DNA of 63,937 bases, the filler included, from Hausera hauseri (lineage: Eukaryota), in the NCBI GenBank assembly GCA_046269625.1. It is 10 parts of 10 records of this genome, joined end to end, with 100 filler letters (N's around TTAATTAATTAA, not from the genome) between each part and the next. Parts side by side here need not be neighbours in the genome. Positions count along the whole stretch, not along the records: positions 20,559 to 25,240 come from JBJURY010477131.1; positions 25,341 to 30,213 come from JBJURY010407922.1; positions 30,314 to 35,276 come from JBJURY010377146.1; positions 35,377 to 40,071 come from JBJURY010472466.1; positions 40,172 to 44,997 come from JBJURY010423031.1; 5 more parts are not named here. The stretch is one strand, 5' to 3'. The notes under the pieces are model-generated. The model did no database searches. It saw only the letters and a list, made by a program, of their open reading frames with translations, and was not told the origin of the DNA. The position numbers and the translations under genes were made by a program. Each line of letters opens with the position of its first letter. Position 1 is the first letter of the stretch. Positions 7,511 through 44,997 of this stretch are shown piece after piece.

Positions 7511-11205
<3,695 letters not shown>

Positions 11206-21682: not shown

Positions 21683-21684
21683 TA

Positions 21685-24600
21685 GTTTAACGATAAGATC
21701 ACTCCTTGTCGAGACGAGATGGCCTTTTAGATTATTGGAGATAAGTGAAAATTTTCCATCATAACAATCTTTATGAGTTGTAGCTGCTAGGTTGGCAGTT
21801 ATATTGTAGTGGAACGATTTCCGTCGCTGGACTTTTTTGCGCCTTCTTTAACTAAAAGAATAGAAATTAACTGTGGCCAAAATAGGTTTAGAATACATAT
21901 GTGTTTCTGTTGTTTGAGGTAGGTCGCAAGGCATTTAGTGGCATTAGCTTGTACGTGTGTGCACAGACATAGGGTGATATCTTTTATCGGGCGGATTTTT
22001 TCCGTTTAGTATCGGTTAGCTTTCCAGCTTGCAGTTGTTCATTAATAAAAGGCGCATTTGTGTCATTTAATGATTCATGAGAATTCTCAGCAATTTTAGC
22101 TGTTTAAGTGTATTTTCAGATTTTCGTATTCTACCTTTTATTTTAATGCAAAAGATTAACGGGCGGAGAACAACTATTAGTAACAGGAGAACGCTCAATA
22201 TTATGATCGTCTTAAAATGTCCTTTGAATTATTTTTAGCGTATCGCATCGTAGTTATTTTCGTATTTCTCTTGGTTTTCATTATTACCCGCTTCAACGTT
22301 TTCTCCATCCGATTGATAACTTGTAAGTTTTGTCCATCTTCATCTAGTTCTGTTATAGCAACTTTGTAATGTGTCAGCCTTCAAAAAGAATCATGCGGAT
22401 GTTGGCTCTTGTGTCAATACTGTTTCACTTACAATCCACTTGTGAAGAGAACACTCGAATTTTATGGTTGCGATTTTCAGATCAAATACTGTATTGATGA
22501 GATAGTGCGTAGTTTGTTGTACAATTATATCCAATTCTCTATTAACTTTCTTAATTTCGACTGTTAGACTGGTCACTACTTTTCGTGGTGGTATTGAGGT
22601 AGTTATTGTTCTTATTGCAGTAGTCATCATTTTCAGGGCCATTTCTGTTACACCTGGTCGATCTATTCCTTTTGACCATATCCATTTGTCACTTGGTTTC
22701 TTTCCGGTCCAATACCATATTGTATATTTTCTATCGAAGGGTATCGGACAACACAAACGGCGATTGTGATAATCCGGCTCGCATCTTATAGTGTCGGTTT
22801 CATTAAATATCCAATTTTATTGTTCAATGTTTTAATATTGGGACTTTCGGTTCCACACGCTCCATCTTTCATAACTTTAGTTCAGAACGTAACGAGGAAA
22901 TCTGGTTTATTGAATTAGTATATGGTACCGGGAAATGAATAGTAAGATCTGTACCAATTTTCATTACTTCTTTTTCCAACTGCATATTGGATTCTGTACG
23001 ACATCTTGAATGAGAATCCGCAGCAAATGAGTGGTGGTTGTCATATAGGTCACAAAACTCTGGAATGGCCACGTGTGATGTAGATACTTTAGGTTTTGAT
23101 TAGCTTTTATTTTTACACAAGGATATTTTCCAACTTGAATACCTTGGTAATTTACTTCCAAGAGCTCAGTCGATATGCATGTTATTAAGCTTAGCATTAT
23201 TAATGATATTGTCGATAAATTGAGTCCTCCATTTCTCATTTTCGATTCTAACGGTGCTGATTTGCATCTATTTGCATGGACATTTATTGGTTCTGTTTTG
23301 TTTCTCTTGTTTTTATTTAAGTAACTACTGGTTTCATCTACATTTCGAATCATATAAGGACCTTTATAAGGTCTATCCAATTTTGGAGTCTTTCCTCTCT
23401 TACTCAGAGGTGTGTGCAGCATAATTATGTCTCCAGGTTTAAAATTGTGCGGTTTAGACTTTTCATCGTCTCGATTTTTATATTCTTTTTGACAGATCTT
23501 TATATATCGAGCAGTCAAATCCCATACGTATCCCACTTTTTCTTCTAACAATTTTTTATACTCCATTTCTTTTCAATGTGAGACAGATGTTTTGAAATCC
23601 GGGTAGACTGGCATGTGAGCATAAAATAAAACGGAGTTTATTTTTTATCAAATAAAATTCGTAGGATGAATCGTATTTCTGATTGGAAATAAACAAGCCT
23701 CTGTGTATTCATCACAATCATCTTGTCGTTCGTTAATCATCGTAGCCAACATATTGGTTAAAATATCGTTAAATCGTTCTAATGTTCCGTTAGTTTGTGG
23801 ATGATAAGGAGTCGTTTTCAACTGTAATATCTGAAATATTTTTGAGATTTCTGCCATGACTTCTTCCGTAAAATTTTGAGCTTGGTCAGTTAATAATTTG
23901 AAGACTGCTCCGTAGTTAAACACGATTTCTTCAACAAAAGCTTATGTGATGGTTTGAGCCTTCATATTCGGTATAGGAAATACGACTTGCCATCTCTAAA
24001 ATAAATCAACAAACACAAACATTTATTTATTTCCATTAATTGTCATCGGTAGCGGTCCCAGGATGTCCATTGCTGAGAATTCCATAGGATGTGGTGGTCA
24101 TTCCAACGGTTTAAGAGGGATTTAATTGTTGAGCCTGTTTTTCCTTGTAGTACAAATTGGACAATTTTTGCACTATTCTTGTACATCTTTAGGCATGCTG
24201 TACGAATAGTACTTTCTTTTCAGTCCGTTTAAAGTTCTCTTTACTGACTGATGTTCTCCAAGCATGTCATCATGATATTGTGTCAATAGTAGCTTTATAT
24301 CTTCTTGAGGAACGATTAAAACCAGTTTTCCTTTTTTCATGGTATAATACACCATCTTTTATTTCGTAATTTTCGGCAAATTTTATCAGATGAGCATGGA
24401 GGTTAGCATCATTCGGTATCGTTTTCTTTTGGATATATTCTTTAATATGTTTTATTGGCTCGTTATTCTGCTGCTTTTGTAACAGTGATTTTTCTTGTTC
24501 TGTAATACTCCAAATAGCTTCTATAAATCCTAGTTTATCTATTGATTCGTCTTCTTGATCTGTATCTTCGGGTTTCCTTAACAGATAGTCGGCATTTGCG

Positions 24601-25240
24601 TTCTTCTTCCCGGTTTATATTCGAACTATAAATTATATGGTTGGAGTAATATAGCCCATTTCATTAAAAGGCTATTCCGACTTTTATGATTTTTTAACCA
24701 TTGTAATGGTTTATGGTCAGTGTAAACAACATTTGGTTTTGTTTCTGATAAGTATTGACCGTATTGCTCCAGTGCGTATACAACTGCAAGTAATTCTCTT
24801 TCAATTGTAGTTTCTTTCATGCTTTCTCAGCTGCCTTCCTCCCAATGATATGGGATATTCTTGGTCCTTATCATCTTTTTAAGGCAAAGCAGCTCCAATA
24901 CCAACTTTACTCGCATCTGTATATAGGAAATATGGCTTTGACATATTTGGATAAGCCAATATAGTTGGTGCCAGTAAATTATCCTTTAATTGTTGATACG
25001 CTTTTTGGCATTCTTGTATCCATACAAGCTTTGAATTCTGTTGCAATAACAAATGTAGTGAAGCGGCTATTTGCTGATAGTCTTTAACAAATTTTCGATA
25101 ATAACCTGTTAGACCGAGAAACTTTCGGACTTCTCTAACTGTTTTTGGAACTGGAAAATCTTGAATTATAATAATTTTTCCCATCTGAGGACTGATGCCT
25201 TCTCTACTCACTGTATTACCTAAAACGTCAACTTTGGTTC
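21685..25240 (-). mobile_element. Gypsy LTR retrotransposon copy A (RT end, RNase H, integrase, in-frame membrane-protein extension), degenerate
   Basis: VRKFLGLTGYYRKF, LYTDASKVGIGA, IERELLAVVYAL, YTDHKPLQWL, LLTDQAQNF, TTPYHPQTNG and GPY. These are followed by VHANRCK..LSTISLIMLSLITC and by ectodomain/TM segments homologous to 36200-37820. Confidence 0.9.
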
Positions 25241-25340
25241 NNNNNNNNNNNNNNNNNNNNNNNNNNNNNNNNNNNNNNNNNNNNTTAATTAATTAANNNN
25301 NNNNNNNNNNNNNNNNNNNNNNNNNNNNNNNNNNNNNNNN

Positions 25341-28300
25341 AGTAAACAAAAAGTTGCTTTGGCACCAAGATGATGTAACGAATGTACACTATCAAAAGCT
25401 TGTTTGTGTAAATATGGGGCAAGAATTATTTTAGAATGTTCTGGTTTGGAAGTATCTAAGGCCACGCCGTCAACAATGTGGTGCGACTTGAACGATTTGA
25501 GAATATCTTGAGATGGCTGATTTTCCTGGAGTTTTGTCTGAGTAAAGATTAGCGAAAAATTGATTGAATCCACTGATCTAGATATGAAATCGGCAACTAG
25601 ATTGTCAACACCGTCAATGTGTTTGATGTCAAAGTTAAATGTGGACAAATATGAAATTTGTTGTTCCTGTCGAGTTGAAGGGTGTTTCACTGCCATTACA
25701 TTAATCAACGGTTTGTGATCAGTCTGTATAACAAAATGATGAGCTGTAATTATGTGACAAAATGTCTTAGAGCAAGAACTATTGCCAGCAGTTCCCGATC
25801 AAAAGTTGAATATCTAGTATCTGGTGTCGTTAATTTTCGGGAAAAGAATTCTAGAGGCTGATTTTCACCTTTATACAACTGGTGTAGTATGGCACCTACT
25901 GAGATGTTTGATGCATCTGTGGTTAAAATTAGTTCAGCGTTAGGCTTAGGAAATGCTAGTATTTCAACAGTCTTTAGTCCTTTAAGTAGCCTATCAAACT
26001 TATTAACCAGTTGTGGTGTCCACATGATTTTCTTATGTATTCTTCCTCCGCTTAAGTGTGCAAAAGGTGCCGTGAGTTCCGAACAATATGGAATATATTT
26101 GTGGACGAAATGGAAGGTACCAAGAAAACTGCACATTTCTGTGGTTGTCTTAGGTTGTTGGACATTTGTAAGAGTCTCAACTTGATTAGGCTGAGTTGAA
26201 TGGCCGTTTGATGAGATAATATGTCCCAGAAAATTAACGCGTTTTTGGAAGAAGTTACATTTTGCAAAATTGATCTGTAGGTTGAACTGATTAAGTAGTT
26301 CGAAGATAGATCGTAGGTGTTCACCGTGTTGTTTAACAGAATAAGAAGCAACCAAGATATCATTAATATATGGATGCGCGAAAGTGAAGTCTGAAAGAAT
26401 TGAATCAACATGTCTCTGAATGATTTGCGCAGCATTCCGTAGACCGCAAGGCATATACAAATACTTATAAAGACCAAAAGGTGTGGTAACCGCAGTTTCT
26501 CGATGTCTTCCGGTGCGACAGGAATCTGGTGGTATGCTTTGGCTAAATCGATTGATGAATAAACTGTGGTAGAATTAAGCCGATGTAATATATCTTTGAT
26601 CAAGGGTAGTGGATGCGCATCCGTTATGGTCAAAGTATTAATCTGGCGATAATCGCCGCCTAGTTGGAAAGATCCATCTTTCTTTTGGACAACGTGGAGA
26701 GGCGAAGACCATGGGGATTTAGATCTAAGAACAATACCTGATTTCTCGACTTTGAAAAATTCTGCCTCTACTGCCTGCCTACGACGAGGTGACAATGGAC
26801 GAACCTTTTGTCGAACTGGTCTTTGGTGGCGTGTAATTATATAATGGTAAATGCCGTTTACAGGAATGAAATTCCGATATTTTTGAAGTATACGAGGACA
26901 AAAAGTAATGATTAATTGTTGTAAGCTTACGAGTAGTTGCTGGAATATTGTAAATGACGATGAACCACGAATGCTGGAAGTACTTGGTATATGTTGATTG
27001 ATTGTTGGAGAGGAATGGAGTGGAGTTTGAAATAGAATGGTCGAGTCCGGGACCTTATTTGAGTTTTGTTCATTGATTTTACTGAAGATACCAGATCGTG
27101 AATGTCGACAATGAGCTGTGACTGACTATCGACGTTGTCCTTTGGAAGCTTACGATGTAAAACGTGGTAGTTAAGAGAATTAGTATAAGGTATAGATCGT
27201 TTAAAATTTGATTGCCTACTTACAGTTGGCCGTGTTGTCGTCAGGGCGCTGTCTATTCCTGTGCTACAGTCTTCAGGTATATTTGATTTCAGGCATCGTT
27301 GGTTACAATCGACTAGCAAGTTATAGTGTAACAGTAAATCGGAGCCAAGTATTGCTGTTGCCATGATCTGCCGAGAATACTGGCGGCGAAATCAGTTTTT
27401 TGGATTGGTGAGTTCGGACAGTTACTGTTAGAGGAACTGAAATACAATTCCGAGCATTAGATCCAAATTTTGCATGATAAATGCAAACTATGTTATCTGA
27501 GTGTAGATTCGCCGAATAATATCTACACCCTAAACAGCATTTATTTGCTTTGTTGTTAAATTTGTTATGGTAATAACATATAAATGACCGTGTTGATGAC
27601 AGTGTTCGATTTCTGGAAAGAGAACGCATTTGATGAGGGGAGGAAGCTTTCCGTCGATATAAGGAAAGGTCATTCAGCTTACCATTGATAGTGTTGATTG
27701 TATGTTGTACTGCCGCATTTTCGGCGCGTAATTGGTTCAATTGGTGCTCTATAGATGTATGTCGTTGATTGTCATCGGTCGTAATTGCGGCTGATATGAT
27801 GGGTTGTTATTGTATTTGTAAGACTTCGTGTGTTTTATCGGCCAATTTAGCTAGTTCATCTAAAGCTGTAGAATCCTCAACAACAGTAAGTAAAGCTCTA
27901 ATTTGAATGGGTAAAGCATTAAGGAAATATCGGCGAAGTAGATCCGGGTTGTGTTCATTGATGACCCCCAATGTACGCAAGTGGGCCAACAAGTGCGTAA
28001 GAAATCACTAGGTTTTTCTGTACCCATGGTGTTTTTATTAAAGAAGCGTTGTATTATCGAGTCAAGTGGTAATTCTGTCAGTTTTAATACAGCATTGAAC
28101 AATTGCGTATAAGGGTCAGTTTCTTGAAAGATGTCCAGTAAGTTATGAATTGAGGCCTTTATGGAATATAGTAGAAGGTAGAGTAGATTACGGGCTTTTG
28201 TTAACAAGTCTGTAATGCAGTTGGATTGTAGCCAAAGTTGATGGAAGTGGAGCCAAGTCTTACTAGAATTTTCATTGTCTGTAAAATATTCAGAGCAATG

Positions 28301-28894
28301 TGAGGGTGTAATTGTAGGGTTTTTGTGAGGAAATCTAGTGTCGGTTGTAGGTGGTGGATGGTTTGATTTTGGATAGTGGAGAATGGATTTGGGTTTTGTG
28401 GTAAACTTATCTGTGATGTCACTGGTTGGTGAAGGAATCATACCGCCGCGGAATCTAGGGTGAATGTAGATACAGAGGTAATATTGTGAGGACATGATGT
28501 GTGGGAGGTCAGTTAAAATGAAACCATTGTGAGTCAAATAGAAGTCATTGAAGACGGTGGCTTTATGAATGAGGTCATATAATTGTAATGTGTCAATACG
28601 TTGTGTGATATGTGCGGTATGTATTAATTTATTATTTACAAAAAGGTGGATGGGAAATGACGTTGGTAAACAACAAGCTGGATAATGTGGTATCTCCTCA
28701 CGTTTTATCGGGTGGATTCTAAGTGTGATAACTTGGTGTGTATTTGAATGGAATAACGGTCGATTTCTTTTTAACAAGGAAGTATTCACCACTGTACAGT
28801 AACTCGCGTAATAGATTCCAGGAATCTGTACATAGTTTGTAGATCGGTGGGAAATGTGACCTATGGAATTAAATACTTTTGTCAATGTCTGCAA
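25341..28894 (-). mobile_element. Gypsy LTR retrotransposon (CsRn1-like Gag; protease remnant, RT, RNase H), frameshifted
   Basis: Gag: DPYTQL..MGTEKPSDFLR, LDELAKLADK, CYYHNKF..ANKC, CIYHAKFGSNARNC. RT: SPWSSPLHVV, GDYRQIN, IDLAKAYHQIPV, YINDILV. RNase H: TTDASN, YSTFDRELLA, NLVADFISR. Confidence 0.88.
28442..28651 (-). other. Ubiquitin-like domain in frame upstream of Gag
   Basis: 70 aa, IHLFVNNKLIHTAHI..FYLTHNGFILTD..YIHPRFRGG, followed directly by Met. Confidence 0.55.
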
Positions 28895-29499
28895 ATGGTA
28901 TCTGTTTCCAGAATAGGTTGGAGGGAATATTGGGAAAAAAGCTGAAAGAAGAAATGCAGAGAATTTTTCAGAATTACATAAAATTAGTTTTCCGCCGCCT
29001 ATGAATTAAAGCCCAATGGACATAGAATACGTCACAGACATCGTAATAAAGCGTATCTTTAGCTCGAATTATTGATCGAAAGCTTCGAAACACGTAACCG
29101 TGTTAAATTACCAGTGTCGGATGCAATCATGTACGCCGATAGATGGAGGGTGGATAAATCCCAATCATAAAAGTATTGGCCAATATTCTCCAATAATTCG
29201 CAATCGTTTTTGACGGGTAATAATTTCTCAATGTGCGAAAAAATAGTAGCAAGACCATCCTGATTATCCGTGCCAGCATATCACATGGCCATTACAAAAC
29301 TTGACCCCACTAGCAACTGAAGGTAGATCTCATTGGCCGTCAGAATATACTTTTCAGCAAAATCCGTCGGTCGGATCTGTCTAAAGGAGTCAAGATGCCC
29401 TTCGGACAGTTCGGAAAAGTTGTCTTTATACGTGTATTTCAATCTCTCTTCAAGTTCCGAGAGATAAAGATGAAAGTGTATATAACATAAAACGCTTGT

Positions 29500-30200
29500 A
29501 AGTAGTAGGGCAAAGTGTACAATATCGTTATGAAAACCTGTCTTAAAGAACTCCTACGAACTGATTTCAACGGTAAATACATAGCGTTGGATTCCGTTCA
29601 TTTCAAAATTTTCAAGCAATTTAGTAAGAGTTTTGAGTTCGGAAGTATCGCCCTTGGTAACAACGGGTCGATTCAGAATGAGGTGTTGGAGTTTGTGAAG
29701 ATTTCTCTTATTTCCCATATTTTCAATTTTAAATCGACGTTTCGTGAAAGAGGCTCTCTTAGTGTCGTAAACCAGTCGAACGCTTGTTTCCATAAAGCGT
29801 TTCTTTAGTAGACCAATATTCTTCGCACTTACAACGACCTCGTTCACAGAAATTCGATATCATTACGATGATTTCACAATTCTGCTCCCAAACCATTTGA
29901 CAAAAATCCGGAATCGTATCTTTCAACGATCCCTGAGTAGCAATGTATGAATTTGGACGGTTATAACCGTCAATGAAACTGAAATTTATATAATCGGGCT
30001 TCCCGCAGAAGGAATTTTGCAAAATAACTCTACTATAATCATAAGGGAAAATATTTGTATAGCGATTTTTCAATTGATTTTCCTTTAGTTTTGCATGTGT
30101 ACTTAAATATTTGTTGGAATCAGAATTTTCGACAGCTTCAAACTCTGCTTGAAATCCCGCTCCATCGTCAGCACGACAACTAAGAATGTTCAACAAGATT
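29500..30200 (-). pseudogene. Intronless degenerate classical protein tyrosine phosphatase domain
   Basis: NQLKNRYTNIFPYDYSRVIL, DYINFS.IDGY, YIATQGS, DFCQMVWEQ, IVM and KCEEYW, then a frameshift. No WPD or HCSAG motif found. Confidence 0.75.
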
Positions 30201-32375
30201 CGAAACGGGAATTNNNNNNNNNNNNNNNNNNNNNNNNNNNNNNNNNNNNNNNNNNNNTTAATTAATTAANNNNNNNNNNNNNNNNNNNNNNNNNNNNNNN
30301 NNNNNNNNNNNNNACTGCTTCATAAGCATCTTTGGACGCATCGCAGAATGTATGTATTTCGTATTGTGACTGATCGGGTATTAAAACCTGATTTATTTGA
30401 ATCTGATCTAAATCCTGTTGTTTCGATACCCATTCTTTTGCTCCCTTAATTAAGTGGTTTGGGAGTTGTTCGTCCCAATCTGCGCCATACATCCGCATTT
30501 CTTGAATAATCAATTTTCCTTTTATTAAGTAACTACTAAGAAACCCTAATGGATCAAATATTCGAGCTACTGAGCTCAAGAATTTTCCCTTTGTAGTAAT
30601 CTCCTCTAATTGGACTCTTTTATCGAAGGAGAATACATCACTGTTAATGCTACACCTCATACCTAGAGTTTTGTCTTCGTCTCCTCACCGACAATATGGT
30701 GGCACGTTGATCTTTCATCTTCCTGTATTATTTCTTGAAATCTTTCAGAATTTGAGACTCACTTTTTCGCTGATATACTGTCTTGACTACACAAATATTT
30801 TAGATCACGGTATATTTTCACTGCTTCACATTCTGTCTTAACGGACCCCAAGCTATCATCCATGTACGTAGGGTTCTTAACAAATCCATGCTGATTCAGG
30901 TACACGTTCTGTGTGTTTCTCGGCGTTTACACGACTTAATAATTGTGCTAGGTATGGGGATGTATTCAGTCCAAATACTAATCTTTGAAATTCATATACT
31001 TTTTCAACTTTTCCTTCCTTCCATAGAAATCGTAAGCATTTTCGATCTTCTTGTGCCACCCCAATTTGTACGAACATTTTTGTGATATCACACACCATGG
31101 TAACCTCGTGTTTTCTAAATCTAATTAATATATCCACTAAATTTAGTTGCAACTATGGTCCTTGGTGAATCATATCGTTTAGGTTAAGGTCCATGCTTTT
31201 TGAGGCCGAGTCGAACACTAATCTAATTTTTGTCGTTTCTGCATCTCTTGGTACGACCGGAAAATGTGGTAGAATCCATCCCGTCATATTGGTTTTTAGT
31301 TCTTCTGTGACGTCCTTAATATAATCTTTCTTTTTGTGCTCGTCGGTTTGTTTTTGATAACCTTCTTTCAACTCTGGATCCTTTTGTAATTTATTCTCTA
31401 GCAGCGATAATCGTCTTCTAGCTACTCGATTATTATCTGACAAGTCTTGTGGGTTTCTCTTCCATAGAATACTGACCTCATAGCTGTTATTAGCATACTT
31501 CATATCTTCCTTGGATTTCTCCATTATTTTTTCTTCTTTCTCTGTCCACGGTTGGTTCTTCTCTAGCATATCTTCGAATTTCTATAACCGTTCTAAATCG
31601 TGTTTAAGTTCCGCTTCACTCGAGAAGAAACATCGAATAAAATTCGAACGCTTCTGGAAAGGTTTCGTTATTGCTGTTGGCCCAATGCATGTTCAACCTA
31701 GCGGTGTTAATTGGGCCACAGGTTCCCCTTCCTTCCCGGATATTTCTTTGATCGCTCAGTAAAGCTGGTTGTAATTCACCCCGATCAAACCATCGACTTT
31801 CCCCGACTTTATCACCTTTGGGAAGAGTATTCCCTTTAAATGATGCCATTTGTTTTTTGATATGTTCCAGTCAGCCGCGTTTAAATTTCCTACAACATTT
31901 TCGATTGCCAGTTCTGAGATCTTCATACTTAACCTTCTATTTAAACTGCAAACGTGAAATTTGATTCTTGCTGCACTTCTTCGCCTTTTCTCACAACCTA
32001 AAACCTCCACCGAGATCGACTCTGATACTTGTTTTAAATGCAGTCTATGTGCTACTGATTTACTAATATAACTATCAGTACTAGCATAATTTAACAGAAA
32101 ATTTATTTTTTCCTTATATACTCCATTGCATAATATCACCGGAATCGTTCTCAGTGACAGTTCATCTTGCTCTTCTATGTCATGCCTTCCTGTTATATAA
32201 CTCTTCTTCTGGCCATTCTTGGTTGCCTCTGACTCATTCGCACTTATTTCACTTCCTCTAGTGAGGTTTCTCTTAACTTCTCTTGCTTAATGTTATCTGG
32301 CCTATGTATCCGATTACTACTTCGTCTAACTTACTGATTTTCAGTTCTTTGTTTATCTGATTTGCTTATGGTTTT

Positions 32376-32528
32376 ATGCAAGAATTGACATTCATCACCG
32401 TTTCTACAATTCCCCTATAGATAATATCTGAATATTCTGTTTTTGTTTTCATTCTTTTCTTCTTTATTTTCATGGGAATATTTGCATTTCTTCCCGAAAA
32501 TGCAATTCCCTCTTGCGAACGCCCAACA
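32376..32528 (-). other. Two tandem CCCH zinc fingers in the BEL Gag nucleocapsid position
   Basis: CWAFARGNCIFGKKCKYSH (32472-32528) and F/C-RYYL*GNCRNGDECQFLH (32376-32432), both with C-x7-C-x5-C-x3-H spacing. Confidence 0.8.
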
Positions 32529-34316
32529 CGCTCCTTTAGCCTTTTGGATATTCTCCTTAACTTCGGTAAAATGGATGTGATGATAATTTATCTTTTTCTC
32601 TTCCGAACCATGACTTCGGCGGTAATCATTACTTTGAAGATGCTTATAGTCATTAGGTCTTGCACCTCTTTGCTCTTTCCTCTCTGAAACATCAATTACG
32701 TGCGCGGATTCCGCTGACACACGACGACTACCGGCCTCTTCTTCCAACCAATACTTTAACTCACTCATAATTTCTTCTTTTTGGCAGATTCGCCGTTACC
32801 TTTTCCACTGACTGATTGATGTCTCTGGCAGATTCTCTAGGACAATTTTATATAGCAATCCACTATCAAGATCATTTCCTTTGTTCAGGTTTTTAAGTCG
32901 TACCGTGACAGCTTCCAATAATGAGACTAGTTTATCTATCTGCTTGACGTTATTTATGCTTATCTTCGCGAATTTACGGATCTCGTTTATTAACGCAGCG
33001 AAATTCCTTTGTTTTCCGCCATAAAACCTTTCAAGCTTCTGTAGAATAGCTTCGTAGGACGTCTCGCTGATCCCAAAATTTGTCACTAACTTTCTGCTCC
33101 ACTATTGACACAAGCTTCTAACTTTATCTGCTTTTCTACTGCTGATATTAGAGTTTGATGTACACAAACCCCAATCATTTGTCTCCGTTTTCCGTAATCA
33201 GTAACGTGTCCGCTAAATTTCGGCAATTCTATCCTGCTTCAGCGGAGACACAAATTGTTTGTAACTGTAGTCTCTGTGATCTTTTGTCGATTTCTTTCCT
33301 GGTCATCTCGTTTAGCAGCTATACGTCGAAGTCCTGCCACTGCGTCTGCATTTAGTTGACTTAAGACTCCTCTGTCTTGAATCAGGTCTTCTAATTCGTC
33401 GGGTCTCTTTTGTTGTTTTGCGACAATCTGCAATTTCAATATTTCTGAAACAGTTTCTTCATAGATTTCGCAAAATTCATCATAAGGTCTTCGAATTCCT
33501 TCTTCAGAATTGTCACCATTTAATCTTCCGTGTATACCCTCCAACCGGGACTTCAATTTTTCTTTCATTAGCAGTATTGTTTCGAATTCCTTTGTTAGTA
33601 GTTTTGTATTTTCGGAATTCGATTTGAGTCTTTTTTCGTAATTTTTATTTTATCTTTTGCTTCCTGCTTTTAATCCAAGGATCAGTTGTATGGCGGTTCC
33701 ATGAACTAGCTTCTCTACATCATTAACTGTTACTATTCTTTTACCTTGGTGGAAAAATTTCAATGAATCCGCTGATATCTTCGATTTTTCTCCTATTTTG
33801 ACAGTTAATTAATTTACGGATCTGATCCTTTCCAAATTGATTTGGATTAATATACTTTCTTGAACTCTTATAAGCACTTGTTTTATTTTTCTATTTGATG
33901 TCGTATTTTTCCCATTTTCCTTTTCAGTTTGGGAAGCGTGTCTTTCTTCTTTCTTTATCCAATGTCTTCCTGTCTCCTTGAAAATTTTCATTTCTCTTTT
34001 CTCCGTCTTTTTATTATCCAGCCAAGATATTTTAAGAACTATGGACATTTGAACTAATTTTAATCGGCACTCTGCCCAAGACCGAATCATAACCTTATTA
34101 AGTGGCACTTCACCAATTTCACCGCAACTCATAGAAGCACTTTTATAACCCTCCCCGACCTTGTCTCTGTGTTGGGTGCTTCTTGAGAAGATTTGCGCTT
34201 CACTAATTTTAAATTAACGGAAATGAAAAGTACCGAAAACAAGGAGAAAGACATGAAATTTTCTGAAGACGATCAAAATTCATGGTTTACACTCCTGGAT
34301 CACAAGGGGGAGCGTT

Positions 34317-34334
34317 AATCACGCTCTGCTACCA
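34317..34334 (-). promoter_or_regulatory. Primer-binding site complementary to the tRNA-iMet 3' end
   Basis: Minus strand TGGTAGCAGAGCGTGATT, preceded by ..CA-TA (probable LTR end at 34337). Confidence 0.7.
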
Positions 34335-35376
34335 TATGGAAAATTTATATAGATGTATGGCGAATTTCTTCCCACATGACACCTATTCATTTTAGAAGAG
34401 AATACCTTATCCACCCAAGTGTCACCCGTCTCAAAACACGAGATTGCATCCATCTATTTTCCGCTGGGCCAAATTACTATTGTATTAAATTCCCCTTCTG
34501 TTATTAAATCTTTTAACTTCGAAATTAATTTATATTGACGGATACTTACTTTCACACCAAGAAAACATCTATCTTTAATTTTATTCGCCAATTCAATCAC
34601 TCTCATCCAAACAATTTCTCCAACAACACAACCCATTCCAGCACCCATGAAACCAGAAAAATGGAAACAATAATTAAATAATATTATTAAATTCACCTTC
34701 AACTAAAATTACAGGAATGTCACCCGACCCAGCTCCGATGCCGAGTTTTTCCAAGAGCAATAAGAGTAACACCAACATTTTGCGTTAAGGTCGCTATCCA
34801 AAGAGTCTGAACTTAGCGGTATATGAACAATAATATCACTCTTGATATTGCCCGTGAATTCGAACATTAAAATAATCAGATTCGCTTGTTGTTTTCTCGC
34901 GGGATGTTCGAAAAGATAGTTTGATTTTGAGAATAACTCAGAACTGTTTCCGTTATACTTTACTCTTCGACGAAATGAATTTTGTACATACGATAGTGAT
35001 AGGTTAAACAGAAAATTCTTAGACATAAAAATATAATCCAAATCTTTGTCGGTATATCGACAATCTATTGTCAAACTAGCGAAGATAGATAGTCTTGTAA
35101 AAAAACGAATCCAATTTTTAATAAGTGATTCCATAGTATCATTTCCACTTGTAGGTATCATTGATAGAAGGTTATTTGAATCTTGTACAATAATATCAGA
35201 AACGGTATCATCTGTAACGCGCGATGAATGACGAGATGAAAAGTACGACTTCGTCAAAGGTCTTTCATATAATATANNNNNNNNNNNNNNNNNNNNNNNN
35301 NNNNNNNNNNNNNNNNNNNNTTAATTAATTAANNNNNNNNNNNNNNNNNNNNNNNNNNNNNNNNNNNNNNNNNNNN

Positions 35377-38300
35377 GGATATCCTAGGACCATTGCCTTT
35401 AACGATCAGTGGAAATAAATACATGTTAGTGTTTGTCGATTTGTTTTCTAGATGGCCAGTTGTAATACCGATACCTGATCAAAAAGCTCAAACTATCGCC
35501 CAGGCTTTTGTCGAAGAAATAGTTTTTAATTATGGAGCACCAACTAAATTATTGACGGATCAAGCACCGAACTTCACAGGGGAAGTTATGGCGGAAATAT
35601 CGAAGATATTTCAGATATTACAACTGAAAACTACTCCGTATCATCCTCAAACGAACGGAACAGTGGAAAGATTTAATGGAATTTTAACTAACATGTTAGC
35701 TACTATGGTTAATGAACGACAAGACGATTGGGACGAATATATTAAACCATGTTTATTCGCCATTAGAAACACTATTCATCCAGCAACAAAGGAAACACCT
35801 TTTTACTTGATGTACCTGAGAGATACTCACATGCCGATTGATTTGGATTTTAAAATCCCAATTTCCCATTTAAAAAATCTGGAATATAAAGAATTGTTAG
35901 AAGAAAAACTAGGATATGTATGGAATTTAGCTTCTCGTCACATGAAAATGTGTCAAAAAGAATATAAAGAACGCTACGATGAAAAAGCGAAACCTCATGA
36001 CTTTAAACCTGGTGATAAAGTCATGCTACATACACCCCTCAGTAAGAAAGGAAAGACACCGAAATTAGATAGACCATACAAAGGTCCATATATAGTTCAG
36101 AAAGCAGATGAAACTAACATCTATCTAAATAAAAATAAAAGAAATAAAATTGATCCTATAAAAGTTCACGTGAACAGGTGTAAACCAGCACCTATGGAGT
36201 CGAAAATGAGAAATGAAAACCTCAGTTTATTATTAATGATAACATTTATGACATTAACCTTAGTGACCAATGTAACAGCCCAAACCTTGGATGTAAATTA
36301 TAAGGCCGTACAAGTGGGAAAATATCCCTGCATAAAAATTACAGCCAATCGGAATTTGACAACAGATGAATATATACATATATTCATATCCAAATATCCG
36401 GTATTAGAAAAAACAACACCAGAAAATTGTGATTTATATTACAATCATTCGGTACACATCTGTTGTGGACTTTTATTTGGAGAAACATATAGAATTCAAT
36501 ATGCAACCGGAAAAAGTGATCAGAGTTACAGAAAATATTTCTCTTTTCCTGGTACTACACATTATTTTAATCGACCATATTTTCTTATTTCATTTTATAC
36601 TAAGATTATGAAAAATGGACCTTGTGTGACAGCAAAACCAGATGTTACAATTACAAGATATGTCACATTAAAATATATAATATTTGATGGTATTAATAGT
36701 GTACATTGCAAACCAAGTCATGAAAACCCATATATATGCTGTCCTATTGCTTTTGATAAAGAATATACGATATATTATTGGACTACATATAATGGTCGAG
36801 TCTGGTCAAAGACATCAGATGGCCCGGAGATAATGGTAAGATCTCCCCCTAGGAAAATTACAACCTCAACAAAGAAAATAATTACTTCGACAACATCGAC
36901 CACTGTAGTAACCAGCCCAATGACCGAAGCCAAGAAAGTTATCAAAGAATTAGATATAATCATACAACCTACAACCCATTCATTGGTTATTACAGCATTT
37001 GATTTAAAAATTACGAATATTAAATTCGAATGTTATTTTGGCCATAAAATAGTTGGTGAAGGAGTATTGACCCCAGATGAACCAACATCCTCCTGTATGC
37101 TTTTGGAAGCCGATACTAATTACCAAATTATTATAACAGAGCTAGACGAAGACGGACAAGTCCTACAAGTTCTCAAAAAGAAAGAGAAAACGTTGAAATT
37201 ACTTACAACTGTCACAAAAAGTGTTATGAAGATAACCACCATACAAAAAGCCGGAGTGACTTCAAATAAATACCTTTGGATAATTATTATATTATGTACT
37301 CTTTTAATATCACTAGTCATACTGTCACCTCTAACAATTTACTGTTTAAAAATAAGACGGCGACAATATAAAGTAGAGAAAATGATAAATCATTTAAAAA
37401 TGTTAAGAGAAAATTCCCAAGACTTTTTAAACGTAAGTGCGCCATTTTTAGAAAACCAACGGCAAGCCAAAGAGCTTACCGATCAAGGGCGGCGACATCC
37501 ACCGCTTGAGGACACAACCGTATGTCTGTGTATACAAATTTATGATAAGGCCGCTGAATTCCTAGTGACCTATATAAGAAATAAACGATCAAAGAAAGAA
37601 AATATTATTCTTTTTAAAACTTCTTGGTTAATATTGATACTTCTCTTTTTAGTCCAAGAAGGCTCAGAATCAGTCCAGAGGCCCAATGCATTCTACAATC
37701 ATATATCGGCCAATCTTCTAGCCACTATCCATAAAAACTATTGCTATTATGGTAAAGCAATGTTCATCCCAAATAATCTGAAGGGACATTTAGTATGTCA
37801 AAGAACTGGTCTTCTTCTCAAACTTCAAACAAGATCAACAAACCTCTCGGATTTGGTAAACATATCCACAAAAACGTTTGCCACCTATATCTCGGTAGCG
37901 AAAGAAAGAGTTCAGCTTAAAAGCAAATCACTTTCTACCAGAATCACGGATACTATGGACATTACAGAGCGAACAACAATTCGTTTAGACCCTCGTTTTT
38001 ATATAAACGTTGCTTAAACCCTCCGGACATACGATACACCTTGTCCAGTAGTATACATAGAGGTGATAAAAAAGGAAAATATACCTCGACTAACTTACGA
38101 AATTGAAAAATACCCTACATCTAGACCTAAGGAAACTGAAGTAGAAAGAGGCCTATCCTTTTTAAGGAGACCAATACAATTAAAGTCAGAAATTGTAATT
38201 ATGGCAATTAATACAGTGTATTTAATGACCCCTATCAGAAGCAAAGAAACGACAATAGTTGAGATAACCCTAATAGATTTAGAAGGTAATATTATAAAAG

Positions 38301-39136
38301 ATGAAATTCTGACCCCAAGAGAGAGAATAGATAATTACAATAGTCATTTTACCGGTTTAAAAGAAGCTGATATTCTTGGCCAAAGGGACTCCTATGAAGA
38401 AGAACCCTATATCCGGAAGGCAATATTTGGCAAGGTAATAGTTGGTCTTGACGTATATCATATGTTGGCAACCACTCTTAGATACGATTATAACAATTTT
38501 CTTGGCATTAGGGATCTATTGCACCATACAGAGATCAATTCCCATCAGGAATATACTGTAAAGCAACTTCTTATGAAATATAACGATGAAGTATATCCTC
38601 AAAAGACGAAAGAGAAGGCCTTAATTATACTTGAGATCTATAATACAATTTCGGAATATAAAAACGAACATTTCAAAAGTAATACAACCCCCATGGAAAC
38701 TCAAGAATCAGAAACTATCCAACAAGTGCTTATCCAGATAGCACCTATGTCAATAAAATCTAAACCCCTGAAGACTCAATCGACACCATCTCAGTCAGTA
38801 ACTGAACAATCAATGTAAAATCAATCAATACCTGATAATCAACCAATCTCAGCCACGACTTCGATAACGAAAGAATGTTATATAAGTCTAAAGCCTTTAA
38901 CATTAGCTAGTTCTACAGAATCCGTCTTCGTTGATTTAACAAAGAAATCAAAGAATAAAAAGAAAATCCCAAAATTAGAGACGATCACCTTAAAAAGAAC
39001 GATCAAGAAAAAAGGAAGAAGCCTCCAGATTAAATCAGTCGATTACCAGGACATAAATGGAGTTATTGAAGTCTACCCCTTGATGTTGAGGACAACATCA
39101 ACTGGAAAGGGAGATGTCGAACCAGTTAACCGTTAA
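35377..39136 (+). CDS. Gypsy copy B: integrase plus in-frame extension (signal peptide, Cys-rich repeats, Thr stalk, FN3-like, TM, second hydrophobic segment, DEDDh-like fold, basic tail); one frame with two internal TAA codons
   Basis: The 874-aa ORF has DDE integrase motifs (VDLFSRW, LLTDQAPNF, HPQTNGTVERFN) and GPY. The 38063 ORF is in the same frame. Stops occur only at 38015-38017 and 38816-38818 before the final TAA at 39134-39136. Confidence 0.85.
38190..38650 (+). other. REX4/ISG20-like DEDDh exonuclease fold lacking catalytic residues
   Basis: IVIMAINTV..IVEITLIDLEGNIIKDEILTPRERIDNYNSHFTGLKEADI..GKVIVGLDVYHML..IRDL aligns by eye to the REX4 pattern VAMDCEMV..ARVSIVN..G..VYDKYVKP...VTDYRT.VSGI..GRILVGH.L.NDL..IRDT. 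Confidence 0.65.
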
Positions 39137-39669
39137 CCAAGCTAAACGAGAAAAAACAATAAAATAAATGCAGGGAAATAAACCCACTAATCATTAACAG
39201 TTGTTGTTGACCGAAAATATTGATCAATCCACTGAACATAATTGTATTTTTATTTCTAACTCATTTTCAGTAATTGATCCTCAATTGATTCTATCATACC
39301 ATAATGTATTTTTATTTTCTTTTTATTGTATTGTATGAGTCTCAATGGTATAAATACTGTTACGTTTCCTCACTCAAATTATTATTATAATTTCGTGTAT
39401 TCATCGACTTGAAAAACGTTCTATGATGATTGACGGATGTAAGAATATTTGTTTTTGTTTTTGTTTTTATTTTCATTTTTGACCGTAGTAATTTCATATT
39501 CTTAATTACATATTTTTGGTTATTTAATTGTTCTTAATTGTGTCAAAGTAAAGTATTTAAGTAAAGAAGTCATAAGTAAAGAATACATCGTAGTAAGAAA
39601 ATTTACATTAAATTAAAAAGGGCCCTATTTGGTATACCGTCCCTTCAGGACGGTTGTTAAAATCTTGAT

Positions 39670-39990
39670 AAATAAGGGTGAGCTACGTCAGTGTCCCTCC
39701 TGACGATACTCATACATTAAGGCCAAATAACTAAAAGTAATTAACATCGGCGGACCCACAGGCCGTTGATTACCACTATATAGTAAGTAAAGTTTGAGAC
39801 AGGGAGAGTACTCAAGCTTTTAAGTAAAGAAGTATAAGTTTAAGGTCGTAAGACCAATAAATCTTAGCCTATAAACTTATCATACTCAAAAAATGAAATA
39901 AAAAACTTTAAAAACAAAGTTTTAAAAAACTACGTATGTTATTTATTTGGAAATGTACGTTAATAATTTGTAACGAGGGTATGTAACATA
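39670..39990 (+). repeat. Probable PPT and 3' LTR of Gypsy copy B
   Basis: Purine tract AAATAAGGGTGAG, then TATATA (~39776), AATAAA (~39856) and a ..TGTAACA end near 39988. No second LTR is available to confirm. Confidence 0.4.
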
Positions 39991-40171
39991 ATATTGTAAC
40001 ATGAATTTATTTACGATTAGCCTGGATTATATTCTTTCTCCTTCAATATTTTCTCAGATTTATATTCCCTANNNNNNNNNNNNNNNNNNNNNNNNNNNNN
40101 NNNNNNNNNNNNNNNTTAATTAATTAANNNNNNNNNNNNNNNNNNNNNNNNNNNNNNNNNNNNNNNNNNNN

Positions 40172-43100
40172 AAGGCATAGTTAAGACTGTATGTATTCTC
40201 GTTTAATATCACATTGCACGGATTGGTGGCATTTGCATTCATTAAATGATTTTTTGCATTTTCAAACCAATTCTTGCTTCTTTGAGGGTTTGAATTGACA
40301 TGGTATCTATAGAAGGGAAAGTCAACAAAGTATATATGTTACTTAACCATATCATAACCGTTATCAACCTATCTGCGGTAACCGGTATGATTTTATTTAT
40401 ATTTATCCATAATTGTAGGGTAACTATGACATATCCAGTTATCCTTAGTTTCCGGATTACTTGTATCGTAATCCGGTTACACCATCGTCAGCTTGGAGTT
40501 GATGCCTCCAAGGTATTTTGTATCCGTCGCAAGTCAATCCTTATCCATTGGTGTCTGCGACGGTTTCGAGTATGTTGAATTATTCTTATTAATATTATTA
40601 CTATAATGATTACTGTGAGAGGAACTATTACACCAATAATTATCAATTCTATTCTCGAATAAGTGTAATTGGCACGTATCGGTTTTATAGTGGTTTTGTA
40701 GAAATAACTTGTCTTTTCGTGCAACGGTCTTATTACCATATTAATTTTGGTTTGTGCTGTTAATATTTTATTGATCACTACTTTATTATTACTGCCAATT
40801 AACTGTAGAAAAACTGTATATGTCATGTTTGGTATAAGAGCCGCGCAGGGTGCTATCAAATCGTCTGGAGTTATTGTACCCTTAGCCACTACTTTATTTC
40901 GCATTTTGCACGTAAATCTTACCATTATAAAGTCAAGGTCCGGCCTCACAGAAATTATTAAAGAAGTCGGGGCTGTAATTATTGCAACATTTTCCCAAAT
41001 GGAACATCTCTGGCGTATATAAGAGGTGTAAGGTTTAATTAATATGGTCATTTTCTTTTCATTATTTTTACCTTATTTGTTGGTAGGAACTGCACCACCG
41101 GCGCCGCGAAGTTCTGTCTCTTTTCATCACGTTTTATAAGGTTCTTATATCGTATGTACATAGTTGGACCACTTATTTTTAATTTATTCTTTAGCCATCC
41201 ATTCTCTTTTTGGATTAATGCATATTTTACACTATAAATTTTCCCTCGGCTTACGTTACAACAAGTTTGTCTCTGTTCGTGCGTTATATAGCATTTCGTA
41301 GATACTGGATTTTTACTTCACTCCTCTTTTATATATACTGTTATCCATCTTATATATTCTAATTCTATTGTACTTGTTACATCGATGCAACTTCTACCAT
41401 TTTTAAATCCTACCTATTTAACTATAATCTGGCTAATTATTACTGCATCTAATTGGGTTTCGTTCATATGACGACGATTAGGAATTAATATAGATCTCAT
41501 CCTTCTTGTATATAGACTTCGATAATAATTATCTTAGTTTTTAATTAATGTGTAATGTACTTGATACATGCCTGATTCTTTAATGATATAGTCTGTCTAC
41601 ATTTTCCAATGGCTTAACATGCAGCCATATTTATGTTCTAAGGGGTTTTGATTAGACCGCGACGATATAACTTGGATTCTTATCATATATTGGATAGATA
41701 CGGGTATTGTAGTATGGAATTTCACGCATTTATTACCGGTTCTGTCATATTGTATTTGATATCGAACACTCCTTAATAATATATCCTCAGATATTGCGGT
41801 CGAATGACGTATCTTTGCTTGTATTATATCCCTCTCGGTCAACTGTGTTATGGCACTAGGCAATAAAAGGTATATTAACAATACCACGTACTTACTTAGA
41901 TTGAGTGTCCTGCAAGGTTTGTTCGTTATCGCCCTAACCCAGTCTGATTCATTTATTCAAAGTTTACTTTCCTTAGCTGCTGGTTTGCACCTATTAATAT
42001 GGACCTTTGAAATGATATTATTTTTCTTGAGAAATATATTAGGCAGATCTACTTTTCCTTTGTATGACCTGTCTAATTTCGATGTTTTTCTTTTTTATTT
42101 AATGGTGTGTATAACATCATAGAGTCCACAACTTGAACTTTGGGTTGGTTAGTCTTCTTATAATATTTCTTATAGGTTACTTTATAATCTTTCTGATTTT
42201 CTTTTACTAGGCCATATGCTAGTTGTAATCGCTCCTTCATTACTTGTTTATATTCTTCTATTTCCATTAAATGGGAAATAGGTTTAGTATTAAAATCCAA
42301 ATCAATTGGTAACCTAGCATCTCTTAAGTACATCAAATAAAATGGAGTTTCTTTTGTCGCTTCGTGTACAGAGGTTCGATTTACGAAAACACACGCATTA
42401 ATATATTCGTCCCAGTCATCCTGCCTTGTATTGTCTACGGTATGTAATTTACTTTTCAAATCGCCTATATATCGCTCTACCATTCCATTGTTTTCTGGAT
42501 GTTCCAGTGTTGACCGTAATTTCAATATTCGTAAAATATCGTATATGGCTTGCATCACTTGGCCTGTTAAATTAGATGCCTGACCCGCCAGTAGGATCCT
42601 TGAAGCTCCATAATTAAATACTATATTTTCCACAAACTTTTCTGCAGTAGTATCCGCCTTAATGTCAGGCATAGGTAGGGCCACGACCCACCGTGTAAAA
42701 TAATCTATAAATACTAAGATGTATCTATTACCGTTTCTTGTTAGCGGTAGTGGTCCCGTTATGTCCATAGCTGTAAACTCGAATGGAGCCGGTGGATTAT
42801 CCCATACTATCAAGGGTGCCTTGAACTTCGTTCCAGTATTCTTTCTAGTGGCGCACAATTTTCAACTATCACACCAATCCTGAGCATCCTTTGCCATAGA
42901 GGGCCAGAAATATTTTCTCTTTAGTTTGTTAATAGTTTTTCTTGCTGATTGGTGTCCGCCTAGTAATCCATCATTATATTGAGTCAATAATACCGTTCTA
43001 TTTTTCTGCGGAATTACCAGCGCCGGTCCATTTTGATGGATATAATACAAAAATCCTTCCTTCTTTTCGTAGGCTTCCCCAAATCTAGCCAAGTGTCTAG

Positions 43101-44997
43101 CTAGCTCCCTGTCTTTTGGTACTATTTTGTTCTGCATAAAATTTCTGATTTCTTTTATCTCCGAATCCTCCCGTTGGTTCTCCTTTATTTTTTCTGTTGA
43201 CCCGTCCATACTCCATATGGCCGCTACTACTTCTTTTGTCTTTGCTTCCTGAGGCATTCTTAAAAAGTAGTCTGCATTGGCGTTTTGCGAACCTGGCTTA
43301 TATTTAAATTCCAATGTATACGGTTGCAACTTTAATGCCCACCGTAATAATCTACTGTTAGGATTCTCATGATTTTTCAACCATTGTAACGGTCGATGAT
43401 CGGTATATACCACTAATGGTTTGCTCTCACTTACATACGGTGAGAATACTTCTAGAGCAAAGATCACCGCCAGTAATTCTTTTTCTATTACCGAATATTT
43501 CATTTGATGTTTGTTTAACTTCTTTGACGTGTATGCCACCGGGTGTTCCTTTCTATCCTTATCTTTCTGTGATAGCACTGCCCCCACTCCATAATCGCTT
43601 GCATCGGTTGCCAATATAAAGGATTTAGTCATGTCTGGGTATATGAGGATAGGAGCGTTTAATAGTTTTTCTTGTAAGTTATCAAAAGCCTTTGACACTC
43701 ATTGGTCCATACCACTTTTTCCAAATCCTCCCGTAATAGTTCATACAGTGGTTTTGCTATTTTGTTAAACTCTTTTCTAAATCTGCGATAGTGGTTTACT
43801 AATCCAAGGAACCGTCGTAATTATTTTACTGTAGTTGGTTTTGGGAAATCTTTTATTTTCCCTAATAGTTTATCCTGGGGCTTTACACCGTTTCTATCCA
43901 CTCGATGTTCGAGGAAATTAACCTCGGTTTGAGCGAACATATATTTCTTTAGGTTTATTTTTAAACCCATGATCTTACATCTATCGAAGAGATCCTGTAA
44001 ATCTTTCAGGTGTTGCTGAAAATCCACCTATGCAATTATTACATCATCGATATATACCATGGCATGTGATGCGTCTAAGAGTAGTAGTTCCGTTCCTCGT
44101 TGAAAGTTTGGCGGTCCGCTTTTTAATCCAAATGGCATTCTATTGAATTCCCATAGTCCTTCTCCTATCGAAAACGCTGTTTTAGGTTTATCTTCCTCTT
44201 TCACCTCCACTTGCCAATATCCATTTTGTAGGTCGATAGTGGTGAATATTGTGGCACCGTGTAGTTTATCCAATATTTCATCGATCTTTGGCAATGGATA
44301 GGTGTCGGTTTCTGTTACCTCATTTAATTCCCTATAATCTATACAGAATCTCATCGTACCGTCTTTCTTCTTGACCATCACTACTCTATCAGTCTACGGC
44401 GAGCAACTTGGTCGTATTATTTTATTCTTTCTCATTTCTTTTATGATTTTTCGGGCTTCCTCTTTTTTGTCATATGCTAACTTATAAGGCCGTTTTCAAT
44501 GAGTTTCTCTTGTCCCTCCTTTAGCTTGATAACATATTGAATGACGTTCATTGTTCCTAAGTCATAGTCATTATGGGCAAACCGACCATTATTGTTTTCT
44601 AATAGATGAAGTAGCATTTCTTTTTCTTCTTTTGTCAGTGCCGTGGAATTTTGTAGTTTCTCTTCCCAATTAATCGTAGGTGTCTTTTTCCCCTTCTCTT
44701 GATTAATGTCCAACTTCAGTTTTTTCGACATCATCTTTTCGATCCTATCTATATCTGATATGATTGACTTGATCTCATTCTTGAGTATTTCTTCGATAGC
44801 CGTTACCGACCCAAGCCTGGTATTCTGTTTTAGTCCTTTTTCTTTCGTTCCTGCGTTACAGAGTCTCAGGTGGATTTTTCCATCTTTTACTTTATCCACA
44901 TGTGGTGCCACTAAAATGTGTTTCTCCATTACGTATGGAGATGGTTCAAAATAAACTGATCTTGTTAGTAACTTCCTTTCTATTCTACCCGGCACTA
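40172..44997 (-). mobile_element. Gypsy copy C (RT, RNase H, integrase and homologous membrane-protein extension), degenerate and more divergent
   Basis: RFCIDYRELN, IDLQNGYWQV, MPFGLK, YIDD, ATDASDYGVGAVL, IDYFTRW and VHINRCKP. Then VVLLIYLLLPSA, the FN3-like CAALIPNMTYTV, and TM IELIIIGVIVPLTVIIIVIILIRII followed by basic residues. Confidence 0.9.

Follow-up and report, generated by a model that had tools for sequence, protein, structure and literature searches.

Integrase read in frame into a predicted fibronectin type III membrane protein in decayed Ty3/gypsy elements: a candidate second envelope glycoprotein

We analyzed a 63,937-nucleotide stretch of the Hausera hauseri assembly GCA_046269625.1 (here, the window), a chain of short contigs with N spacers between them, in which three Ty3/gypsy retroelement copies (A, B, and C) carry a putative membrane protein in frame after integrase. 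Each copy lies on its own AT-rich contig (33 to 36% GC): copy A at 20559-25240 (minus strand), copy B at 35377-40071 (plus strand), and copy C at 40172-44997 (minus strand). The three contigs are shorter than 5 kb and end inside the element. The Ty3/gypsy (Metaviridae) Pol order of reverse transcriptase (RT), RNase H, and integrase was recognized from the order of Pfam matches in copy C, and copies A and C are collinear with a relative, P0104. No long terminal repeat (LTR)-like direct repeat of at least 40 nt was found in the loci of four relatives, which are also truncated. All three copies are broken, dead copies.

In copy B, one open frame of 879 amino acids (aa) on the plus strand runs from integrase through a signal-peptide-like stretch and three cysteine modules, with a Thr-rich linker among them, to a transmembrane (TM) helix and a tail. 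The contig begins inside Pol, with the integrase core and C-terminal domain at 35378..36193 (Pfam rve, E = 3e-12; DDE positions present). The junction and the signal peptide predicted from hydropathy (36194..36277) are in frame with integrase and include a Met at 36206. Modules 1 and 2 (36278..36841) are kept in copy A and weakly in copy C, and their match to the module profile is not significant. After a Thr-rich linker evident from the sequence (36842..36925), laid out as in the relatives P0002 and P0003, comes module 3 (36926..37213), whose predicted fibronectin type III (FN3) fold is based on AlphaFold2, Foldseek, structural alignment, and a profile built from relatives only. A stalk and TM helix (37214..37348; Kyte-Doolittle [KD] 19-mer value, 2.74) lead into the cytoplasmic tail (37349..37657), which is open into an accessory gene and ends with a pyrimidine tract and an AG resembling a splice acceptor (AG ends at 37652). 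The accessory gene is DEDDh-exonuclease-like (37658..39133); it is without the motif I acidic residues and contains in-frame stops at 38015-38017 and 38816-38818.

The other two copies repeat this layout on the minus strand. Copy A consists of decayed RT, RNase H, and integrase (23252..25240; tblastn to copy B and P0104), then the signal peptide, modules 1 to 3, stalk, and TM helix, with stops and frameshifts (22145..23251), and finally the tail, an acceptor-like site (AG ends at 21852), and the start of the exonuclease-like gene (21695..22144). Its frame is continuous from integrase to the end of the signal peptide without a stop, and across 830 aligned aa it has 9 stops and 9 frameshifts. 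A decayed DNA-transposase-like sequence on the minus strand (20559..21685; weak helix-turn-helix and transposase Pfam hits) truncates copy A; it resembles a mariner. Copy C retains a decayed pre-RT region, RT, RNase H, and integrase (41975..44995; Pfam RVT_1, RT_RNaseH, H2C2, and rve), followed by the junction, signal peptide, modules 1 to 3, stalk, and TM helix (40566..41974) and, up to the contig end, by the tail, a stop, an acceptor-like site (AG ends at 40307), and an ATG 5 nt downstream (40172..40565). An earlier note on this DNA had described the integrase-membrane protein fusion in the three copies, and the junction peptides, cysteine motifs, and module 3 peptides that it quoted were all found where it had placed them. 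The TM helices quoted for copies A and C are likewise in place, although that of copy A reads one V fewer. The in-frame TGA at the copy C junction (41957-41959) occupies the aligned position given for it, but it is not the sole break that it had been taken for, as copy C has 5 stops and 2 frameshifts across 664 aligned aa.

The extensions of the three copies are homologous, and they have diverged further than the adjoining integrase. Between copies A and B, amino acid identity is 76% in integrase and 54% in the modules; between copies C and B, the values are 56% and 23%. The extension of copy C aligned to that of copy B with a score of 125 (shuffled sequences, 42 ± 5; maximum of 55; n = 60), so the homology claimed earlier stands, as does the greater divergence of the ectodomain. 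The bulk of the C-B signal comes from module 3 (score of 87 versus a shuffle maximum of 41; n = 100). The signal from modules 1 and 2 is marginal (60 versus 56; n = 100), and neither the stalk with the TM helix nor the tail of copy C aligned significantly to copy B (29 and 50 of 100 shuffles, respectively, scored equally high).

The module is under purifying selection between copies A and B. For this pair, dN was 0.33 for the modules against 0.13 for integrase, with a dN/dS of 0.22 (CI, 0.12 to 0.35) and synonymous sites near saturation, and in a codon-blind DNA alignment each of modules 1 to 3 had a codon-position bias (P = 0.0007, 0.015, and 0.04). Copies C and B are too diverged for a trustworthy estimate of selection. 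No segment had a dN/dS significantly above 1, and with synonymous sites so close to saturation, the host-driven diversification that had been suggested for the ectodomain was not borne out. The ectodomain is the fastest-evolving part of these elements, identity falling from RT through integrase and the gB-type glycoprotein to the ectodomain. Between the relatives P0104 and P0006, identities were 81, 68, 43, and 23% for these four parts (shuffled ectodomains, 17 to 29%); between P0007 and P0109, they were 94% (RT), 86% (integrase), and 42% (ectodomain), with no gB value for this pair.

Run X1 contained 5,756 contigs matching copy B at 80% identity or more, with 30 of 30 bins covered. The first in-frame stop of copy B is private to that copy, because none of the 11 run X1 contigs listed at the site carries it; the family is abundant in the run. 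Differences between copy B and run X1 fell evenly on the codon positions (10/11/9) among the 30 coding-range places listed of a longer list (719 further), as for neutral decay or sequencing error. On the copy B contig, summed depth in run X1 was approximately 4,400 to 5,900 at 39616-39929 versus 16 to 23 just upstream, possibly reflecting an LTR-related or other repeat.

Module 3 is predicted to adopt an FN3 fold, a seven-stranded beta sandwich, in agreement with the FN3 assignment in the earlier note. The AlphaFold2 model of module 3 of copy B, made from a 12-row module alignment, has seven strands (pLDDT, 77.6). Its top Foldseek hits in the PDB were FN3 domains (probability of 1.0; TM score of approximately 0.6), and VIA-align superposed it on fibronectin with a Z score of 10.3 (rmsd, 2.6; 93 residues aligned). 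Structural hits in a viral library were mostly FN3 domains of phage and giant-virus proteins. Sequence comparisons by themselves stayed under threshold: no module passed the Pfam fn3 cutoff (the best, 1 of 12, had an E value of 0.059), and the 10 PDB hits of the module profile were all FN3 proteins at E values of 0.36 to 2.4, below significance. ESM Atlas returned FN3 and cytokine-receptor leads below 0.9 and, with P0001 as the query, no usable hit. Modules 1 and 2 are probably FN3-like; their single-sequence model had a pLDDT of 40. The extension of copy B had no fusogen match in Pfam. A shared FN3 fold by itself says nothing on function.

The cassette of signal peptide, modules, and TM helix is clade-wide and not local to the window. 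Relatives, comprising proteins (P) and metagenome loci (L), were found through integrase. The extension alone as a query retrieved nothing among 8,000 candidates, 1.84 billion representatives, or viral contigs; one further viral-contig search gave three weak loci with integrase only. Homologs of the extension were reached solely through integrase. A TM helix in frame after integrase was present in all 7 of the closest long proteins (48 to 57% integrase identity) and in none of the 96 others (n = 103), and 3 of 120 shorter integrase hits had one (P0109, P0110, and P0180). Nine of 78 metagenome loci had at least 41% integrase identity; six of these run into a TM helix, and L008, L057, and L061 are broken. 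L004 and L007 are near repeats of P0003 and P0005, respectively, and are not independent. Among the intact relatives examined, 12 of 12 have a continuous frame from integrase to cassette, with spacers that range from 26 to approximately 900 aa, some having a protease domain of their own.

In the integrase tree (a quick search with 62 rows chosen from approximately 300), copies A, B, and C group together on a separate branch (SH-aLRT, 95) within a 16-row clade (SH-aLRT, 96), with L010 and P0110 as sister (SH-aLRT, 85). The occurrence of the cassette throughout this clade, together with the A-B dN/dS, bears out the earlier view of an old module under selection. A profile built from 17 modules of the relatives only scored module 3 of copy B at 12.7 bits and that of copy C at 9.9 bits (best of 1,000 shuffles each, 9.5 and 7.6); its best score against 215 other Pol proteins was 2.2 bits, and the margin is modest. 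Modules 1 and 2 had no significant score with this profile.

Several further proteins and loci bear on this distribution. In L010:7499-8518, P0110, and P0180, Pol continues in frame into a signal peptide, then an ectodomain of another kind, and a hydrophobic end; P0180 (39% integrase identity; outside the tree rows) may be an independent case. L075, L079, and L080 passed the hydropathy threshold and were rejected because their tails are RT. They are gypsy-like elements with integrase upstream of RT, a Gmr1-like domain order.

The most complete view of the architecture comes from P0104. Its single 3,735-aa frame encodes a capsid-like Gag, zinc knuckles, a fusion glycoprotein (PF24664), protease, RT, and RNase H as well as integrase and, after integrase, a signal peptide, two modules, a stalk, and a TM helix. 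The PF24664 (gB-type) fusogen precedes the protease in the same open reading frame (ORF) in six relatives (P0005, P0006, P0008, P0104, L006, and L010). A second signal peptide-FN3-like-TM cassette, flanked by protease-like domains, lies between env and protease at the N terminus of P0007 and at L006:4811-5065; the N-terminal part of L006 had no BCL2 or MATH hit. Of 12 relatives, 4 have an extra D-T-G aspartic protease motif in the spacer that separates integrase from the signal peptide. Ankyrin repeats follow integrase in P0002 and P0003, which also have the three-module layout of copy B; P0008 and L004 have a weak UBX/ubiquitin-like match, and L009 has a RING domain. For the additional regulatory domains of Burro, a planarian element (ankyrin, BIR, MATH, BCL2, and ubiquitin-like), Pfam gave no hit in copies A, B, and C as far as they are sequenced. 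The region of copy C at 44480-44995 aligns with that between protease and RT in P0006 (E = 9e-5), the place of a dUTPase-like domain in Burro, and has no dUTPase Pfam hit.

The gene downstream of the TM helix is DEDDh-exonuclease-like by homology to the RNase T/ISG20/REX group. Copy B, from residue ~761 and through two frames past the in-frame stops, aligns to a downstream ORF of L004 over 37685-38896 (E = 1e-11); its accessory gene matches ISG20L2 (E = 0.008), and the relatives' ORFs L004b and L006a match PF00929 above the cutoff. The motif I acids are present in L004b, L006a, and L007a and absent in copy B, L004a, and L009b (3 of 6 aligned). The post-TM region of copy A up to NNLKGHLV, previously assigned to the membrane protein, is actually the N-terminal domain of this accessory gene. 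The exonuclease profile gave no hit on the tail of copy C (40172..40565).

In relatives, the exonuclease-like gene is a separate ORF. Of 10 downstream ORFs, 6 have a YAG immediately ahead of their first ATG, versus 43 of 904 background ATGs, which suggests that the accessory ORFs are expressed from spliced messages. The codon phase of the acceptor-like site is identical in all three copies. The frame of copy B stays open from the TM helix into the accessory gene (chance of 0.00035; codon-position bias, P = 0.06). A second hydrophobic stretch in copy B (aa 749 to 758) was set aside as a TM helix or signal; it is likely a translated pyrimidine tract, and its codon pattern is not significant (P = 0.64). 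Among other accessory ORFs, L009:2055-3389 encodes a RING finger above the Pfam cutoff and L004:10906-11517 a weak ubiquitin-like domain. Two short tandem duplications (89 and 62 nt), at L004:8767-8944 and 10577-10700, lie within spacers that separate accessory ORFs.

On balance, we favor the interpretation that copies A, B, and C are decayed members of a Ty3/gypsy lineage in which the FN3 protein after integrase would serve as a second envelope glycoprotein for attachment to cells. Its intact relatives encode Gag, a gB-type envelope, and Pol, and then, in the same frame, a signal peptide, predicted FN3 modules, and a TM helix. The polyprotein would be threaded through the endoplasmic reticulum (ER) membrane by internal signal sequences, and signal peptidase and the element's aspartic proteases would free integrase and a membrane protein of type I, which would join the gB-like fusogen on particles and bind host cells. 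Exonuclease-like accessory proteins would be made from spliced RNAs and, in the sub-lineage of copies A and B, also in frame with the polyprotein. The window copies would once have had the fusogen upstream, and the host would be a flatworm.

An ER-threaded polyprotein is the simplest reading because an envelope protein in mid-ORF needs internal signal sequences. It is supported by P0007 and P0109, which have no Met between integrase and signal peptide, by the extra protease motif, and by the second cassettes of P0007 and L006. The mature product is probably a separate membrane protein, not an integrase-membrane chimera, because the lineage has a separate gB-type fusogen in the same ORF. The fusogen upstream of the protease in the six relatives likewise indicates that the tail is probably a second membrane protein and not the fusogen itself. 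What favors an attachment role is that the fusogen lies elsewhere and that the slot, always retained, has the fastest-changing content.

Several observations weigh against this interpretation. In copy C and L008, a stop separates integrase from the signal peptide; in copies A and B, a Met immediately precedes the signal peptide, an arrangement that, together with apparent use of a splice acceptor, would allow separate expression. The FN3 module profile does not recognize the ectodomains of P0005, P0006, P0008, L010, L057, and P0110, so conservation lies in the slot more than in what fills it, and the ectodomain of P0005 is only approximately 100 aa. The window contains no env, the contigs of copies A, B, and C ending inside Pol. 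The elements are likely Burro-like and of a flatworm lineage, a membership drawn from the layout and env motifs of relatives. The attachment role itself is proposed from architecture and analogy only.

The alternative that we take most seriously, although we consider it unlikely, is that the cassette acts at the host cell surface, in adhesion, as a decoy receptor, or in blocking superinfection, as other Burro cargo manipulates the host, and not in attachment of particles. The FN3 fold is characteristic of adhesion proteins and cytokine receptors, the ectodomains differ between sub-lineages, and cargo in the clade includes ankyrin, RING, ubiquitin-like, and exonuclease types; an anti-apoptotic RING/BIR region of Burro1 is also cited, at second hand, in the available text of one account (PMC13465017). 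However, such cargo comes and goes, whereas no intact clade member examined has lost the slot, and the cassette shares one reading frame with the structural proteins. An incidental fusion, in which the membrane protein is made from a spliced subgenomic RNA and integrase merely lacks its own stop, seems improbable. It would account for the YAG enrichment, the Met before the signal peptide in copies A and B, and the junction stops in copy C and L008. Against it, the frame is kept in all 12 intact relatives despite spacers of such different lengths, some with a protease domain, the spacers of P0007 and P0109 are without a Met, and copy C and L008 are decayed elsewhere too.

A fusogenic Env in its usual place after pol would also have a signal peptide and a TM helix. 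We regard this identity for the extension as very unlikely, since relatives already have a gB-type fusogen upstream; it is largely refuted by the predicted fold, the module modeling as FN3 with FN3 domains as its nearest viral-library matches. The lowest probability is given to a host receptor fragment captured recently by chance or to frames left open by chance in AT-rich DNA. Although the extension had no sequence homolog in two large protein searches, both possibilities are refuted by the significant homology among copies A, B, and C, by purifying selection, and by the same cassette in independent public assemblies.

Carrying the attachment interpretation further, we tentatively suggest, as a possibility short of even odds, a two-glycoprotein entry machine of a flatworm lineage, carried on a single polyprotein threaded through the membrane, with a gB-like fusogen before Pol, a swappable, hypervariable FN3 receptor binder after integrase, and spliced ISG20-like nucleases, active or dead. 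The elements would then be a complex enveloped virus with an independently evolved, herpesvirus-like split between attachment and fusion. As an always-kept and fastest-evolving part, the second membrane protein is a concrete candidate for determining cell tropism (e.g., stem cells or gut) and a marker for particles. In this clade, a single ORF accommodates two membrane proteins along with integrase and several proteases; its ISG20-like nucleases are an addition to the known cargo of retroelements, and the window copies add a deep sub-lineage.

The lineage and its gag-env-pol polyprotein are already known. The available text on the Burro/GYPSM1 elements of planarians describes env in frame between gag and pol, ankyrin and ubiquitin-like cargo, elements of up to 30 kb, and a Burro1 ORF of 4,873 aa, and calls the infectiousness of Burro-like elements a hypothesis (PMC6431247). 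Six gB-type GAG-ENV-POL elements of Schmidtea, Smed_errantivirus_1-6, are listed in another account (PMC13524379). In a motif search of its sequence supplement, two env motifs of P0006 and P0008 matched Schmidtea rows only (3/3 and 2/2), and a motif search for integrase gave no matches. The relatives resemble Burro/GYPSM1 in their giant ORF, env between gag and pol, ankyrin after integrase (P0002 and P0003), accessory ORFs, and weak ubiquitin-like region (P0008), as far as the available texts describe these elements (PMC6431247 and PMC13524379). In contrast, those texts give neither a signal peptide-FN3-TM cassette nor extra protease domains after integrase, and no DEDDh exonuclease ORFs. The relatives' ORFs (2,700 to 3,900 aa) are shorter than the Burro1 ORF, and neither ankyrin repeats nor a BIR domain separates integrase from cassette in copies A, B, and C.

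Literature searches turned up no account of the FN3 cassette after integrase or of the exonuclease ORFs, although existing Burro annotations, including Repbase, may already show the cassette. The words "fibronectin" and "exonuclease" do not occur in the main text of PMC13524379, and "transmembrane" and "DEDD" occur only within the Terminon section in the available text of PMC6431247. The available texts of PMC3315495, PMC11410931, PMC8532177, PMC13465017, and 10.1101/670604 give no domains beyond the Burro1 RING/BIR region.

Other systems share parts of this arrangement, as far as the portions of the accounts at hand describe them. The GAG-ENV-POL errantiviruses of nematodes, bryozoans, and flatworms are likewise Ty3/gypsy elements whose gB-type env lies upstream of pol; however, P0014, which has this order, stops 19 aa past integrase, and a second membrane protein goes unmentioned in that portion (PMC13524379). 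Atlas virus and related Belpaoviridae encode a single Gag-Pol-Env polyprotein with glycoproteins in frame after integrase, a GN/GC-like pair of the kind whose attachment and fusion roles are separate in phleboviruses (PMC9094657). They are BEL/Pao elements with a class II fusogen after pol, whereas here Ty3/gypsy elements have a class III fusogen before pol and the FN3 protein after it. The bdelloid rotifer elements Juno and Vesta are LTR elements with a 3'-5' exonuclease or small TM ORF3 downstream of pol, typically expressed by splicing (PMC5408684). Their exonuclease is DEDDy/RNase D-like and in a separate ORF, unlike the RNase_T/ISG20-like genes described here, which are sometimes duplicated or catalytically incomplete and accompany a TM protein in frame with Pol.

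The window also contains other elements. A second decayed gypsy element, of another clade, lies at 25341-29005 (minus strand; 31 to 36% identity to the RT/RNase H of relatives), with a 381-aa stop-free frame without a Pfam match upstream of it. On the same contig, a fragment of a receptor-type protein tyrosine phosphatase (29762-30213, minus strand) has PTPRS/LAR as its best PDB hits; a connection with copies A, B, and C was rejected, as the fragment is on a separate contig with no link to them. A decayed BEL/Pao element occupies 30314-35276 (minus strand; Peptidase_A17, E = 8e-22). Across the window (1-63937), five AT-rich contigs of 4.7 to 5.0 kb stand beside others that look teleost-like from their repeats, and the window may hold DNA of more than one organism.

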